From contig DASRQZ010000036.1 of assembly GCA_035696125.1 (NCBI GenBank), positions 11,110 through 75,109 of the forward strand: a DNA stretch of 64,000 bases, read 5' to 3'. Made by a program: the position numbers and the translations under genes. Of this stretch, positions 48,525-54,242 are shown in pieces (positions within the stretch are counted from its first letter, which is position 1; each line of letters starts with the position of its first letter). The DNA is from Polyangia bacterium (GTDB taxonomy: Bacteria; Myxococcota_A; Polyangia; Fen-1088). The notes below the pieces were generated by a model, which made no database searches, had not been told where the DNA came from, and saw only the letters and a program-made list of their open reading frames with translations.

Positions 48525-49679
48525 ATGATGAGACCCACTCTCCGTCGTGCCGCACCTCAGCTCCGATCTCGCTCGTTTCGCTTTCCCCTGCTCGCCGCGT
48601 TCGCCCTGGCGGCGACCGCCGTGCCCTCGGCCGCGCTGGCCCCGCGCGCGGAGGCCGGACCACCCATCACCGTTGGCTTCATCTATGTCGGGCCCAAGAC
48701 CGACTACGGCTACAACCAGGCGCACGCCGAAGGAGCGGCCGCGCTGGCCAAGCTGCCGGGCGTGAAGATCCGCGAGGAGGAGAAGGTTCCCGAGACCGTC
48801 GCCGTCCAGAAGACCATGGAGAGCATGATCAACCTCGACGGCGCCTCGCTGCTGTTCCCGACTTCGTTCGGCTACTTCGATCCGCACATCCTGAAAGAGG
48901 CGCAGAAGAACAAGAAGGTCACCTTCCTCCACTGCGGCGGCCTCTACACTGAGGGCAAGCATCCCGAGAACGTCGGCAGCTACTTCGGCTACATCGACGA
49001 GGCCCAGTACGTGTCCGGGATCGTGGCCGGTCTCACCACCAAGTCGAACAAGCTCGGCTTCGTCGCCGCCAAACCGATCCCCCAGGTTCTGCGCAACATC
49101 AATTCGTACACCCTGGGCGCGCGCTCGGTGAACCCCAAGGCGACCACCACGGTGATCTTCACCGGTGACTGGGCGCTGCCGGTCAAGGAGGCGGAGGCGG
49201 CCAACAGCCTGATCGACCAGGGCGTCGACGTGCTGACCTCGCACGTGGATTCGCCCAAGGTGATCGTCGAGCTGGCCGAGCGGCGCGGGGCCTTCGTCAC
49301 CGGTTATCACGCCAACCAGAGCGCGCTCGCCCCCAAGGGCTACCTCACGGGCGCCGAGTGGAACTGGGGCAAGGTCTACAAGGACTACATCGAGTGGATC
49401 CAGGCCGGAAAGAGCTACCCGCACCTCCTGCGCGGCGGCCTCAAGGAAGGCTTCGTCAAGGTCTCGCCCTACGGCAAGGCGGTCTCGGCCGAGGCCAAGA
49501 AGAAGGCCGACGAAGCCAAGGCCAAGTTCATGGCCGGTACAATGGTCATCTACAAGGGGCCGCTCAAGGACAACACCGGCAAGACTGTCATCGCCGCCGG
49601 CAGCGAGGAGAAGCAGACCGACGTCGCGCTGGAAAAAATGGACTACCTGGTAGAAGGCGTGGTCGGAAAAACGCACTGA
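48525..49679 (+). CDS. BMP-family (PnrA/Med-like) ABC transporter substrate-binding protein
   Basis: It has a signal peptide. The BMP pattern is ITVGFIYVGPKTDYGYNQAH, FPTSFGYFDP, LGFVAAKPIPQVLRNINSYTLGAR and FTGDW. Confidence 0.9.
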   Translation: MMRPTLRRAAPQLRSRSFRFPLLAAFALAATAVPSAALAPRAEAGPPITVGFIYVGPKTDYGYNQAHAEGAAALAKLPGVKIREEEKVPETVAVQKTMESMINLDGASLLFPTSFGYFDPHILKEAQKNKKVTFLHCGGLYTEGKHPENVGSYFGYIDEAQYVSGIVAGLTTKSNKLGFVAAKPIPQVLRNINSYTLGARSVNPKATTTVIFTGDWALPVKEAEAANSLIDQGVDVLTSHVDSPKVIVELAERRGAFVTGYHANQSALAPKGYLTGAEWNWGKVYKDYIEWIQAGKSYPHLLRGGLKEGFVKVSPYGKAVSAEAKKKADEAKAKFMAGTMVIYKGPLKDNTGKTVIAAGSEEKQTDVALEKMDYLVEGVVGKTH

Positions 49680-49698
49680 ACGCCCCGGGAGACTGCCC

Positions 49699-50889
49699 AT
49701 GGGGGTTGGCGTCAGCATGAAGTCCGGCGCCGAGATGACCTCGGCGTCGCCGGCCGTAGCTCCGGTATCGCCCGGGCGACCACAGGTCGTGGGCGCGCAC
49801 CGCCGTGACGGGTTCGTCGCGGCCGTGCGCGCCGCGCTGGCGTCACTGGTGGTGCCGGGGGCTGCGTTCACGGTCGCGCTGATCCTGTTCGGGATCTTCA
49901 TCGCGCTGACCGGGCACAACCCGCTGGCGGTCTACTATCAGATGTACCGCGGGTCGTTCGGGACCGCCTTCTCGTTCCAGAACACCCTGGTGCGCGCGGC
50001 CCCGCTGATGCTGACCGCGCTCGCCACCGCGCTGCCGCTGCGCCTGGGCCTGGTGGGCCTGGGCGGCGAAGGCGCCATGGTGCTGGGCGGGTTGGGCGCG
50101 GCGGCGACGGCCACGGCGCTGGGTGGGCACGGACCGATGGCGATCAAGACCTGGATGCTGATCGCGGGCGGTCTGGTCGGCGGCGGCTGGATCGCGCTCG
50201 CCGGCGCGCTGCGCGCCTACCGCGGCGTCAACGAGACCATCAGCACCCTGCTGCTCAACTACATCGCGATCGCGCTGCTCAACCACCTGGTCGAGGGTCC
50301 GCTGCGCGATCCCAGCAGCCTCAACAAGCCGTCGACGCTGCCCATCGGCGACGACAACATGATCGGCAACCTGCCGGGCATCGACGTGCACTGGGGGCTG
50401 GCGTTCGGCGTGGGCGCGTGCCTGCTGACCTGGGTGCTGATGGATCGCACCACCTTCGGGTTTGCGGCGCGCATGGTGGGCGGCAATGTGCGCGCGGCGC
50501 TGCTCAACGGCCTGCCCGTCGGACGCCTGATCGTCATCGCCACCTTCATCGGCGGCGTGTGCGCCGGGCTGGCCGGATCGATCGAGGTGGCGGCTATCCA
50601 CGGCACCGCCAACGCGTCGCTCATCACCGGCTACGGCTACACGGGCGTGCTGGTGGCCTTTCTGGCGCGCAGCAACCCGCTGGCGGTGATACCGGTGTCG
50701 TTGATCCTGGGCGGCATCGGCGCCAGCGGCGGACTCTTGCAGCGTATCTTCGACCTGCCCGACGCCACGGTGAACGTGCTGCAGGGCATCCTGTTCATCT
50801 CGATCCTGTTCTCCGAGACCTTCTACGGCCAATCGCCGCGTCAGCTGTGGCGCGGGTTGCGCTCGTTCAGGCGGGGGGCGGCCGGGTGA
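49699..50889 (+). CDS. ABC transporter permease (BMP/ribose-type)
   Basis: It is a multi-TM protein with GGEGAMVLGGLGAA and GYTGVLVAFLARSNP blocks. Its stop overlaps the next start as GTGA. The exact start is uncertain. Confidence 0.85.
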   Translation: MGVGVSMKSGAEMTSASPAVAPVSPGRPQVVGAHRRDGFVAAVRAALASLVVPGAAFTVALILFGIFIALTGHNPLAVYYQMYRGSFGTAFSFQNTLVRAAPLMLTALATALPLRLGLVGLGGEGAMVLGGLGAAATATALGGHGPMAIKTWMLIAGGLVGGGWIALAGALRAYRGVNETISTLLLNYIAIALLNHLVEGPLRDPSSLNKPSTLPIGDDNMIGNLPGIDVHWGLAFGVGACLLTWVLMDRTTFGFAARMVGGNVRAALLNGLPVGRLIVIATFIGGVCAGLAGSIEVAAIHGTANASLITGYGYTGVLVAFLARSNPLAVIPVSLILGGIGASGGLLQRIFDLPDATVNVLQGILFISILFSETFYGQSPRQLWRGLRSFRRGAAG

Positions 50890-51933: not shown

Positions 51934-51999
51934 ACACTCCGGTCGCGGGAACGAACTACCATCCGTCGCGCTAGCGCCGTCTGAGAAGGGAGTCTGCAC

Positions 52000-52710
52000 A
52001 TGACCATCCCCACCATCGCGCCGAAGTACGTGCCCGCCGATCCCTACCGGTGGCCGTGGAACGGAGATCTGAAACCCGCCAACACGGTGCTGATCGTGAT
52101 CGACATGCAGACCGACTTCTGCGGCAAGGGCGGCTACATCGATCAGCTGGGCTACGACATCAGCCTGACCCGCGCTTGTATCCAGCCGATCCAGCGCGTG
52201 CTGGAGAAGATGCGCGCGCTCGGCTACCCGATCATGCACACCCGCGAGGGCCACCGGCCCGATCTGTCGGACCTGCCCGCCAACAAGCGCTGGCGATCGC
52301 GGCAGACGAAAGGCAACCAGGGGGTGGGGATCGGTGATGTCGGGCCGTGCGGGCGCATCCTGGTGCGCGGTGCGCCGGGCTGGGACATCATCCCCGAGCT
52401 GGCGCCGCGCGCGGGCGAGACCATCATCGACAAGCCGGGCAAGGGTTCGTTCTGCGCGACCGACCTCGACCTCATCCTGCGCCAGCGCGGGATCGCCAAC
52501 ATCATCCTGACCGGCATCACCACCGACGTGTGCGTGCACACGACGATGCGAGAGGCCAACGACCGCGGCTATGAATGCCTGCTGCTGGAAGATTGCTGCG
52601 CGGCCACCGACGCCGGCAACCACGCGGCGGCGCTGAAGATGGTCAAGATGCAGAACGGCGTGTTCGGCGCGGTCACCAGGTCGAGCGCGCTGCTGGAGGC
52701 GCTGGCGTGA
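52000..52710 (+). CDS. Isochorismatase-like cysteine hydrolase (amidohydrolase of the BiuH/TrtA/GuuH/RutB/CSHase superfamily)
   Basis: The catalytic-triad contexts are visible: Asp in [11 protein letters not shown], Lys in [10 protein letters not shown], and Cys in [17 protein letters not shown]. The stop overlaps the ATPase start as GTGA. Confidence 0.9.
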
Positions 52711-54242
52711 GCGAGGACCAGGCCAGCGCGGCCCCGCCGCTGGCGCTGGAGGCCAGCGGCGTCACCAAGCGCTTTGGCCCGCTGACCGCCCTCGACGCGG
52801 TGTCGCTGCAGCTGCGCCCCGGCACGGTGCACGCGCTGCTGGGCGAGAACGGCGCCGGCAAGAGCACGCTGGTGAAGTGCATCATGGGCTACTACCAGGC
52901 CGACGAGGGCGCGGTGCGGGTGGCCGGCGCCGACGCCGCGATCAAGAGCCCGCGCGACGCGGCGGCGCTGGGCATCGGCATGGTCTACCAGCACTGCACG
53001 CTGGTCGACAACATGACGGTCGCCGAGAACCTGGTCCTGGCGCGCCGCCAGCTGCCCTTTGTCTTCGACTGGAAGTCCGAGCACCAGGCGGTCGGCGACT
53101 TCATGGACCGCATGCCTTTCAGCCTAGACCCGGGTCGGCCGGTGCGCATGCTGGCCGCGGGCGAGAAACAAAAGCTGGAGATCTTGAAGCAGCTCTACCT
53201 CGGCAGCCGCATCGTGATCCTCGACGAACCGACGTCGGTGCTGACGCCCGACGAGGCCGACGAGGTCCTCGGGTTGCTGAAGGCCATGACGCGGGAAGGG
53301 AAGATCACGATTCTGATGATCTCGCACAAGTTCCGCGAGGTGATGAAGTTCGCCGACGAGGTGACCGTGCTACGGCGCGGGCGCTGGGTCGGCGGCGGGC
53401 GGGTGGCCGACCTCACACCCGAGGCCATGGCGCGCATGATGGTGGGCGACGACCCGCCGCGCGCCAACCAGAAGCGTGTCGACCGCGCCGCGGGTGACGT
53501 GGTGCTGGACATCCGCGGTCTGCGCGCGCACGACGACCTGGGCACGCCGGCCGTCGTCGACTTCGACCTGCGCGTGCACGCCGGCGAGATCGTCGGTATC
53601 GCCGGCGTGTCCGGCAACGGCCAGGAAGAGCTGCTCGAGGTGCTGGCCGGACAGCGCATCGCGCGCGCCGGCCTGGTGGTGGTGAACGGCAACCGCTACC
53701 GCGCGCGCCGCGACGAGGCGCGCGCCCAGCGGGTACGCTGCCTGCCCGACGAGCCCCTGCGCAACGCCTGCGTGGGCGCGATGTCGGTGGCGGAGAACAT
53801 CGGTTTTCGCCTGTTCGACCGCAGGCCCTTCGCGCTTGGCCGCGCGCTGGTCAGCGGTCGGGCGTTGCGCGAGAACGCGCGCGCGCTGATCGCCGAGTAC
53901 GGGATCCGGGCGCCCGGCCCCGACGCGCCCATCAGCGCGCTGTCGGGCGGCAACGTGCAGCGCGCCGTGCTGGCGCGCGAGCTGCGCGACGACGTCGCGC
54001 TGCTGGTGGCCAGCAACCCATGCTTCGGCCTGGACTTCGCCGCCGTCGCCGAGATCCGCTCGCGCCTCATGGAGGCGCGCAACCGCGGCGCCGCCGTGTT
54101 GCTGATCAGCGCCGACCTCGACGAGGTCTTCGCGCTGTCCGACCGCATCGTGGTGATGAGCGATGGCCGCGCCGTCCACGAGACCCCCATCGCCACCGCC
54201 GACCTGCACGTCATCGGCCGCCACATGGCCGGGCATGAATAG
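52707..54242 (+). CDS. ABC transporter ATP-binding protein with duplicated ATPase domains (BMP/sugar type)
   Basis: The first Walker A is GENGAGKST, with [13 protein letters not shown] and ILDEPTS. The second domain has [25 protein letters not shown] and the Walker B-like motif [12 protein letters not shown]. Confidence 0.9.

Follow-up and report, generated by a model that had tools for sequence, protein, structure and literature searches.

What do an ABC importer of the BMP family and a cysteine hydrolase do together when the gene for the enzyme stands inside the transporter operon? This question is raised by positions 48525-54242 of the 64-kb stretch of DNA analysed here (the window; G+C ~70%), where the open reading frame listing and third-position G+C analysis give five genes, all on the forward strand. 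The original prediction had described the order substrate-binding protein (SBP), permease, permease, hairpin, hydrolase, ATPase, and all of these parts are present as described. It had proposed an uptake-plus-hydrolysis module for a ureido compound feeding nitrogen assimilation, an idea that holds through the orthology of the hydrolase with BiuH and its linkage to the transporter, and had left the substrate as unknown, a point on which the comparisons below are more specific. We read the locus as a biuret-scavenging operon for uptake and hydrolysis, and give this reading a probability of about three in four.

Biuret (NH2-CO-NH-CO-NH2), which is toxic to plants, occurs as an impurity in urea fertiliser and also arises when cyanuric acid, triuret and oxidised uric acid are broken down; in the cyanuric acid and triuret pathways it is an intermediate. 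The BiuH enzyme family was characterised between 2011 and 2018, and the triuret/biuret pathway was described in 2020. In the proposed mechanism, biuret would be captured by the periplasmic BMP-family SBP and, by analogy with other members of the family, imported through the two permeases with the fused double ATPase. BiuH, translationally coupled to the ATPase, would then convert biuret to allophanate and ammonia, with Cys178 as the nucleophile aided by Asp35 and Lys145, and with the substrate held by Lys148 and by Gln218 of the neighbouring subunit. In the last step allophanate might pass to a hydrolase encoded outside the window, or might decarboxylate to urea, which the adjacent urease would consume.

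Identity of the hydrolase

The hydrolase gene, biuH (biuret amidohydrolase, EC 3.5.1.84; 52000-52710, + strand), encodes 236 amino acids that match the Pfam Isochorismatase family (PF00857, 153 bits, E 9e-45). Its product scores 402.6 bits against a cut-off of 370 on NF050097, the NCBIfam equivalog model for BiuH, and covers positions 2-221 of the 221 in the model. As a control, the TrtA paralog of Pseudomonas oryzihabitans scores only 236.6 bits and fails, and thus the cut-off separates the sister families BiuH and TrtA. The hydrolase falls below the cut-offs of the other family models, with 117.8 bits for RutB (cut-off 378), 71.4 for PRK11440 (195), 42.6 for the nicotinamidase PncA (174) and 23.2 for YcaC (310). 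Its PDB matches are the BiuH proteins of Rhizobium leguminosarum (6AZO, 394 bits) and Herbaspirillum (6XJM, 339 bits), followed by TrtA (6XIX, 214 bits) and RutB (8BKD, 92 bits). Global identity is 74.6% to R. leguminosarum BiuH, relative to which the hydrolase has a four-residue insertion at about positions 103-106, and 47% to TrtA.

The Asp/Lys/Cys triad that had been recognised from the sequence is D35/K145/C178, and it aligns with D36/K142/C175 of R. leguminosarum BiuH. Beyond the triad the BiuH residues D36, Q38, F41, Y47, K142, K145, F148, T151 and G169, as well as I170, T171, V174, C175, T179 and Q215, are all identical in the hydrolase, so that by alignment the predicted biuret contacts K148, Q218, I173/T174 and V177 and the gating residues F40 and Y46 are kept; the roles of the contacting and gating residues come from mutagenesis and from the biuret complex 6AZQ (PMC5806882). 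Tassoulas et al. (PMC7948467) list six positions at which the consensus sequences of the two sister families differ, F35, N41, A134, E160, Y187 and I205 in TrtA against Y, Y, S, D, T and V in BiuH. The hydrolase has the BiuH state at all six (Y46, Y52, S150, D176, T203 and V221) and the TrtA consensus residue at none. The mapping is validated by R. leguminosarum TrtA, which was aligned alongside and shows exactly the residues and position numbers published for TrtA.

In a neighbour-joining tree of 131 sequences the hydrolase and R. leguminosarum BiuH lie within an 82-member clade, with the 49 TrtA-type paralogs outside it in 20 of 20 bootstraps; GuuH, CSHase, PncA and EntB lie outside the scope of this tree and were judged from the model and PDB scores alone. 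Within the tree set the hydrolase is 73-93% identical to BiuH-type and 43-54% identical to TrtA-type sequences. It groups with BiuH and not with TrtA, and the placement in a nicotinamidase or isochorismatase clade that the original prediction had named as telling against it was not found. Judged by the equivalog model, the ~75% identity, the full set of specificity residues and the bootstrapped clade, the hydrolase is a BiuH ortholog, and the substrate earlier called unknown is predicted to be biuret. The expected reaction, biuret + H2O -> allophanate + NH3, is well supported by these sequence comparisons.

Linkage of biuH to the importer and the SBP pocket

The first gene of the operon (48525-49679, + strand) encodes the periplasmic BMP-family SBP of 384 amino acids (Pfam Bmp PF02608, 135.6 bits, E 2e-39), which has a signal peptide without a lipobox cysteine. 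It is followed by the NupB-like permease 1 (49699-50889, +; 396 amino acids; BPD_transp_2 PF02653, 109.6 bits), whose orthologs occupy the same position in related loci, and by the NupC-like permease 2 (50886/50904-51827, +; PF02653, 126.9 bits), which begins either at GTG 50886, so that it overlaps the end of permease 1 by the four letters GTGA (50886-50889), or at ATG 50904. Beyond biuH the operon ends with a NupA-like fused double-domain ABC ATPase (52707-54242, +; 511 amino acids; Pfam ABC_tran PF00005 in two stretches). A Bmp SBP, two PF02653 permeases and a double-domain ATPase, on one strand and with short or overlapping junctions, make up the architecture of a BMP ABC importer. The NCBIfam 'putative B6 ABC transporter' models (NF047927-NF047930) were considered and rejected, the scores against cut-offs being 62.5/400 for the SBP, 158/400 and 126/465 for the permeases and 418/670 for the ATPase.

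The overlap of the hydrolase stop with the ATPase start that had been noted earlier is read directly in the sequence: within the GTGA at 52707-52710 the ATPase GTG (52707-52709) overlaps the biuH TGA (52708-52710). A GGAGG Shine-Dalgarno sequence lies 7 nt 5′ of this GTG, and the sequence has no further in-frame ATPase start between GTG 52707 and the conserved N-terminus.

The conservation of this arrangement was surveyed in one genome per GTDB species, among which at least 596 species have a close BiuH relative; the best 80 were taken with 10-kb flanks, and their locus content was scored by tblastn with the window proteins and annotated reference proteins. In 66 of these 80 species loci biuH is embedded between the permease 2 and ATPase genes, and several of the other 14 end at contig edges. 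Such recurrence in other species puts the arrangement far beyond chance, and the linkage to the transporter, on whose conservation the original prediction had staked its case, is thus strong. The surveyed taxa comprise Alpha-, Beta- and Gammaproteobacteria, Myxococcota, Planctomycetota, Verrucomicrobiota, Cyanobacteria, Nitrospira, Methylomirabilota and Actinomycetota (a Solirubrobacteraceae metagenome-assembled genome, or MAG), the closest relatives being an unclassified proteobacterial MAG and Myxococcota MAGs. A possible 4-nt NTGA overlap between the biuH stop and an in-frame NTG start of the ATPase is present in 49 of 65 loci, which makes translational coupling an old, conserved feature. 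In the reverse direction, starting from the SBP, biuH lies downstream in 28 of the 35 metagenome contigs that have enough downstream DNA. BiuH is the sole enzyme common to the embedded clusters, among which TrtA, AtzD, formamidase and AtzF vary, and in at least 11 loci it is the only enzyme that accompanies the transporter.

The locus is therefore an unremarkable example of a nitrogen-scavenging gene cluster that was already known. The novelty that had been implied for it is not supported, since such clusters are widespread and the location of biuH beside bmpA-nupABC, a BMP-type transporter, and urease was reported in 2025 (PMC12625717). The cluster is also carried by plasmids. It is annotated on a P. 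oryzihabitans plasmid, and on the Klebsiella aerogenes plasmid p035_A-VIM-1 (locus L083, 4575-14198) it lies between IS1 copies in the order atzF, SBP, permease, permease, formamidase, biuH, ATPase, trtA, GntR. SBP matches like that of L083 occur on further plasmids of Enterobacter, Klebsiella and Citrobacter. Four alphaproteobacterial loci (L025, L042, L062 and L074) have a second, distant BMP-type transporter ~2-9 kb downstream of the biuret cluster, with 34-38% identity and the order ATPase, permease, permease, SBP.

The solved structure nearest to the SBP is AtzT (6PI5, 228 bits over the full length), for which PMC6834077 gives affinities of 110 nM for guanine, 2.2 µM for 2-hydroxyatrazine and 340 µM for cyanuric acid. 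The nine named AtzT pocket residues were mapped onto the SBP with one fixed numbering offset, and they correspond to Y63/S114/F115/Q161/Q187/N191/W216/H240/D242. The aromatic sandwich Y63/W216 (Y45/W194 in AtzT), S114 (S97), the F115 backbone contact (F98) and N191 (N169) are kept. The contacts of the AtzT guanine pocket T139, E165, N218 and N220 are replaced by Q161, Q187, H240 and D242 (T139Q, E165Q, N218H, N220D); in AtzT the side chains of E165, N218 and N220 touch guanine, and T139 and N169 belong to the network that supports them. The SBP accordingly does not match the full residue pattern of AtzT-type nucleobase binding. Among BiuH-linked SBPs from genomes the equivalents of H240 and D242 are found in 65 of 65 and that of Q187 in 63 of 65, and the same pocket residues are invariant in 80 of 80 metagenome SBPs. 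Position 161 varies among Q, E, H, V and L. A pocket variant tied to accessory enzymes was looked for and rejected, position 161 having no clear association with them and the signature being otherwise unchanged. The signature of the clade, Y-S-F-Q/E-Q-N-W-H-D, is thus unlike that of guanine-binding AtzT, and on plasmids SBP identity falls sharply from ~59% to ~40%, a drop that sets the BiuH-linked SBP clade apart from other BMP proteins. This pocket indicates a planar, hydrogen-bond-rich ligand that is probably something other than guanine. Biuret, as the substrate of the only common embedded enzyme, appears to be the most economical candidate, and we propose that the transporter is a biuret importer, a proposal whose support is genomic (66/80 and 28/35 linkage).

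The fate of allophanate and alternative readings

Several points weigh against a dedicated system for biuret. On the enzyme side, a 67%-identical 'BiuH' of Rhodococcus is a slow biuret/triuret generalist (PMC7948467), and so high identity does not guarantee strict specificity. On the importer side, no characterised bacterial biuret transporter was found in the literature searched; the sole paper noting the linkage terms bmpA-nupABC an 'ABC-type nucleoside transporter', by annotation (PMC12625717); and AtzT, the nearest solved relative, has an affinity of 110 nM for guanine but just 340 µM for cyanuric acid (PMC6834077). Seven of the 35 contigs of the reverse survey (L093, L096, L100, L106, L116, L124 and L129; SBPs 75-88% identical) have the same transporter and pocket signature with permease 2 immediately followed by the ATPase and no embedded biuH, so that the transporter is not strictly tied to BiuH. 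In these seven either biuH lies elsewhere in the genome or the ligand is not only biuret. Three of them were examined: the L093 transporter lies among housekeeping genes (fmt, priA), and those of L100 and L124 stand beside genes for signalling or regulation (Ser/Thr kinase, hybrid histidine kinase, LuxR-type). Finally, the pathway past allophanate is not visible in the window: a homolog search of the 64 kb gave no atzF, trtA, atzD, hpxZ/trtB, formamidase or GntR, and the cupin described next was the sole match.

One alternative concerns this last step only. Here allophanate would go to urea, spontaneously or aided by the cupin, and then to the co-located and possibly co-transcribed urease with no need of AtzF, which would make the adjacency of the urease genes functional. 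Allophanate decarboxylates to urea non-enzymatically as a matter of general knowledge, and the window has no atzF in its 64 kb. Directly downstream of the ATPase gene lies a gene for a ChrR-like cupin (54425-54787, +; 120 amino acids; Pfam Cupin_7, 74.4 bits), and the probable TTG start of ureD at 54759 (54759-55685, +; Pfam UreD, 175.8 bits) is inside the 3′ end of this gene. The cupin has the complete metal-binding motifs HxHx3Ex6G and Gx5PxGx2H and is 44% identical to the R. leguminosarum cupin encoded 3′ of trtA; neither NCBIfam nor the PDB gives a function beyond ChrR-like. The ATPase-cupin-ureD-ureC order of the window, with or without trtA after the ATPase, recurs in four Myxococcota-like loci (L003, L007, L014 and L020) and in ~10 soil metagenome contigs. 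On the other side, several urease-linked relatives (L003, L089, L094 and L102) carry atzF just upstream of the SBP gene, and atzF may for this reason lie outside the window here; moreover, most phyla have no urease near the cluster (ureC in 6 of 80 loci). We regard a urease route that dispenses with AtzF as doubtful.

Among biuret/triuret clusters the cupin gene recurs as a conserved accessory and is found in 26 of the 80 loci (a further example is L081, 12940-13293). It never co-occurs with AtzH-like HpxZ/TrtB, which is found in 15 of 80 (hypergeometric P = 0.0013, without correction for phylogeny), and each of the two is mostly found alongside trtA. Possibly the cupin takes the place of the carboxybiuret decarboxylase TrtB without being homologous to it.

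A second alternative broadens the substrate range: the transporter would be a general ureide importer (biuret, triuret, cyanuric acid, formylurea), the enzyme a biuret/triuret generalist, and the window a trimmed triuret or cyanuric acid cluster. The accessory genes added to the same transporter speak for this, with trtA in 49 of the 80 loci, atzF in 24, formamidase in 22 (mostly between permease 2 and biuH) and atzD in 5, while the pocket signature remains constant. So does the suggestion of Tassoulas et al. (PMC7948467) that a single biuH without trtA may select for generalist enzymes, and the window retains a cupin of the kind that elsewhere mostly accompanies trtA. Against this stand the BiuH-specific consensus residues at 6/6 positions, the high specificity for biuret of the characterised BiuH enzymes (PMC5806882) and the loci, at least 11, in which BiuH is the only enzyme beside the transporter; we consider it rather improbable. 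Within the transporter operon the formamidase (for example L082, 7990-8997; NCBIfam PRK13287, 562 bits) has formylurea or formamide as possible substrates. A GntR regulator is present in 20 of the 80 loci.

Alternatively, the importer might carry a purine base, a nucleoside or another nitrogen heterocycle, with BiuH mopping up intracellular biuret that arises, for example, from oxidative purine or uric acid breakdown. Nucleosides and purines are the best-known cargoes of the BMP family. The guanine affinity of AtzT points the same way, as do the seven contigs that have the transporter and no biuH, and the nitrifier study annotates bmpA-nupABC and proposes purine-derived substrates (PMC12625717). 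However, four of the side-chain contacts that surround guanine in AtzT are replaced in the SBP and the replacements are kept across the BiuH-linked clade, which the identity drop on plasmids separates from other BMP proteins; the operon has no purine-catabolic genes; and the one enzyme common to the embedded clusters is BiuH, translationally coupled to the ATPase. A purine or nucleoside cargo is thus improbable in our view.

A more ambitious combination goes beyond the biuret-scavenging operon that we prefer. In it BiuH, made in fixed ratio with the ATPase, would dock on the importer to form an importer-hydrolase metabolon in which biuret is cleaved on entry; the BMP clade with the Q/Q/H/D pocket would be the bacterial biuret importer; and the cupin would be a ureide-pathway enzyme, either a stand-in for TrtB or an allophanate decarboxylase feeding urease. 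All of this together is speculative and has long odds. Lastly, the hydrolase might be a member of some other isochorismatase-like family (TrtA, guanylurea hydrolase, RutB, N-carbamoylsarcosine amidase, nicotinamidase or isochorismatase) and cleave a different amide. This reading is close to refuted, since the fold and the Asp/Lys/Cys triad common to all these families and the 47% identity to TrtA are set against RutB, PRK11440, nicotinamidase and YcaC scores far under their cut-offs, absent TrtA discriminator residues, PDB scores that favour BiuH over TrtA and RutB, and a clade separated in every bootstrap.

Flanking features and comparison with known systems

The operon was predicted to lie between urtABCDE and the urease genes, and NCBIfam and Pfam matches place both flanks there. 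The block on the left (41078-48224), on the reverse strand and divergent from the biuret operon, comprises urtE (41078-41764; 311 bits), urtD (41793 to ~42530; 370 bits), urtC (~42587-43800; a BPD_transp_2 match), urtB (43801 to ~45400; 404 bits) and urtA (45432-46868; 572 bits), the scores being those of NCBIfam equivalogs above cut-off, and a porin-like gene for 445 amino acids (46887-48224) directly upstream of urtA on the same strand. The last has no Pfam match and a weak ExtI-porin match (49 bits, below cut-off), and its product may be an outer-membrane channel for urea and small amides that serves both importers. To the right, beyond the cupin gene and ureD, lie fused ureAB (55927-56577), ureC (56574-58286), ureE (~58289-58864), ureF (58861-59535) and ureG (~59550-60182), all on the forward strand and identified by NCBIfam and Pfam matches, with a possible 4-nt overlap, ATGA 56574-56577, at the ureAB/ureC junction. 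Directly 3′ of ureG is a gene of the GFA family (60287-60700, +; PF04828, 83 bits), similar to glutathione-dependent formaldehyde-activating enzymes. The nitrogen-scavenging block as a whole thus has the order porin-like gene, urtABCDE, biuret module, cupin, urease.

A sigma-54 promoter (TGGCAC-N5-TTGC) has no match in 48225-48524, 5′ of the SBP gene, and window-wide counts are at chance level; a sigma-70-like site at 48213-48240 is a match to the consensus alone. An Rfam scan of 38000-64000 (E<=1) gave no riboswitch or known RNA in the operon leader or at the hairpin, its matches being chance microRNA-type ones and one antisense within ureC. This last, to 5_ureB_sRNA (56725-57007, -; 90.9 bits, gathering score 40), most likely reflects the conserved urease coding sequence and not a small RNA gene.

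The spacer between permease 2 and biuH is 172-175 nt long in the window and typically 8-50 nt in other species, and it folds with -71.4 kcal/mol (z = -4.1 against shuffles). It holds an imperfect hairpin (51838-51930; arms of 19 nt, 89% complementary) that resembles a repetitive extragenic palindrome (REP) and is built of GACGCCAAG-type repeats. It has sister copies at 37517-37572 (after ftsH), at 6968-7051 and in the ATPase-cupin gap at 54271-54373, the latter with GACGCC repeats, a GGATCCGGATC-type loop and arms of 39 nt that are 79% complementary. A GGATCCGGATC-like loop is present in three of the four hairpins read (37517, 51838 and 54271), and all four are intergenic. Similar hairpins built of repeats are found at 5285-5375, 28709-28765 and 31525-31642, and the repeat types in the window are GACGCC, CCAAGA and GGCCTC; the set looks like a REP-like dispersed family of the source genome. 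The hairpin of the biuret operon has no Rfam match, is not seen in any of 83 other loci, and has no counterpart in the closest relatives (L001 and L003), whose permease 2-biuH junction is 0-11 nt. With these absences and the sister copies in the window, a conserved regulatory element is rejected. The hairpin, which had been listed as a part of the operon, is instead a REP-like insertion specific to the lineage and does not count among the regulatory features of the biuret system. It may act as a stabiliser of the upstream message or as a partial terminator that damps read-through.

Knowing which bacteria import and mineralise biuret bears on soil nitrogen cycling and on bioremediation. The window adds one organism to a long list and by itself changes little. 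The survey sharpens the question of the cargo of the BMP-type transporter found with biuH in different phyla; it supplies a pocket signature and flags a conserved cupin.

Among known systems, the R. leguminosarum bv. viciae 3841 BiuH (6AZO, 6AZN, 6AZQ, 6AZS and 5BK6) is like the hydrolase over the whole protein (~75% identity), with an identical catalytic triad and identical biuret-binding residues. Its plasmid cluster (pRL4b5: GntR, SBP, permease, permease, formamidase, biuH, atzD, ATPase, cysteine hydrolase, cupin) has the same skeleton as the window, a BMP SBP, two permeases, biuH and the ATPase with a cupin further downstream. It differs in having a formamidase gene ahead of biuH, the cyanuric acid hydrolase gene atzD separating biuH from the ATPase gene, trtA beyond the latter, and a GntR regulator; the window lacks all four and is joined to a urease cluster instead. 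The TrtA-BiuH-AtzF-TrtB clusters of Herbaspirillum sp. BH-1 and relatives (PMC7948467) have the same BiuH family (339 bits to 6XJM), and the Herbaspirillum huttiense locus (L023) has the same transporter skeleton. Unlike these clusters, the window has no trtA, trtB/hpxZ or atzF, and so it could handle biuret but not triuret, with no dedicated allophanate hydrolase visible.

Ammonia oxidisers and comammox Nitrospira (PMC12625717, mSystems 2025) have contigs on which biuH lies beside bmpA-nupABC, with a complete urease cassette nearby in the ammonia-oxidising bacteria, and the Nitrospira locus of our survey (L071) has an embedded order identical to that of the window. That study, going by annotation, takes the transporter to be one for nucleosides, and its available text takes up neither the embedded position of biuH nor the translational coupling nor the binding pocket. 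PnrA/BmpA-NupABC purine-nucleoside importers share the Pfam families and the subunit architecture, but their similarity is distant (30-34 bits to TpN38/BmpD-type structures). Closer to the SBP is AtzT of the atzRSTUVW operon of Pseudomonas sp. ADP (6PI5 and 6PI6), which shares with it the Tyr/Trp sandwich and the Ser, Phe-backbone and Asn169 contacts and has T139/E165/N218/N220 where the SBP of the window has Q/Q/H/D. AtzT binds guanine, ammeline and 2-hydroxyatrazine, and cyanuric acid weakly, and belongs to a nitrogen-starvation-induced system beside cyanuric acid catabolism (PMC6834077). In that system, according to the accessible part of the paper, the regulator AtzR and the transporter AtzS-W form one operon and the catabolic enzymes are encoded by the divergent atzDGEHF operon, unlike the window, where the hydrolase gene stands within the transporter operon itself.

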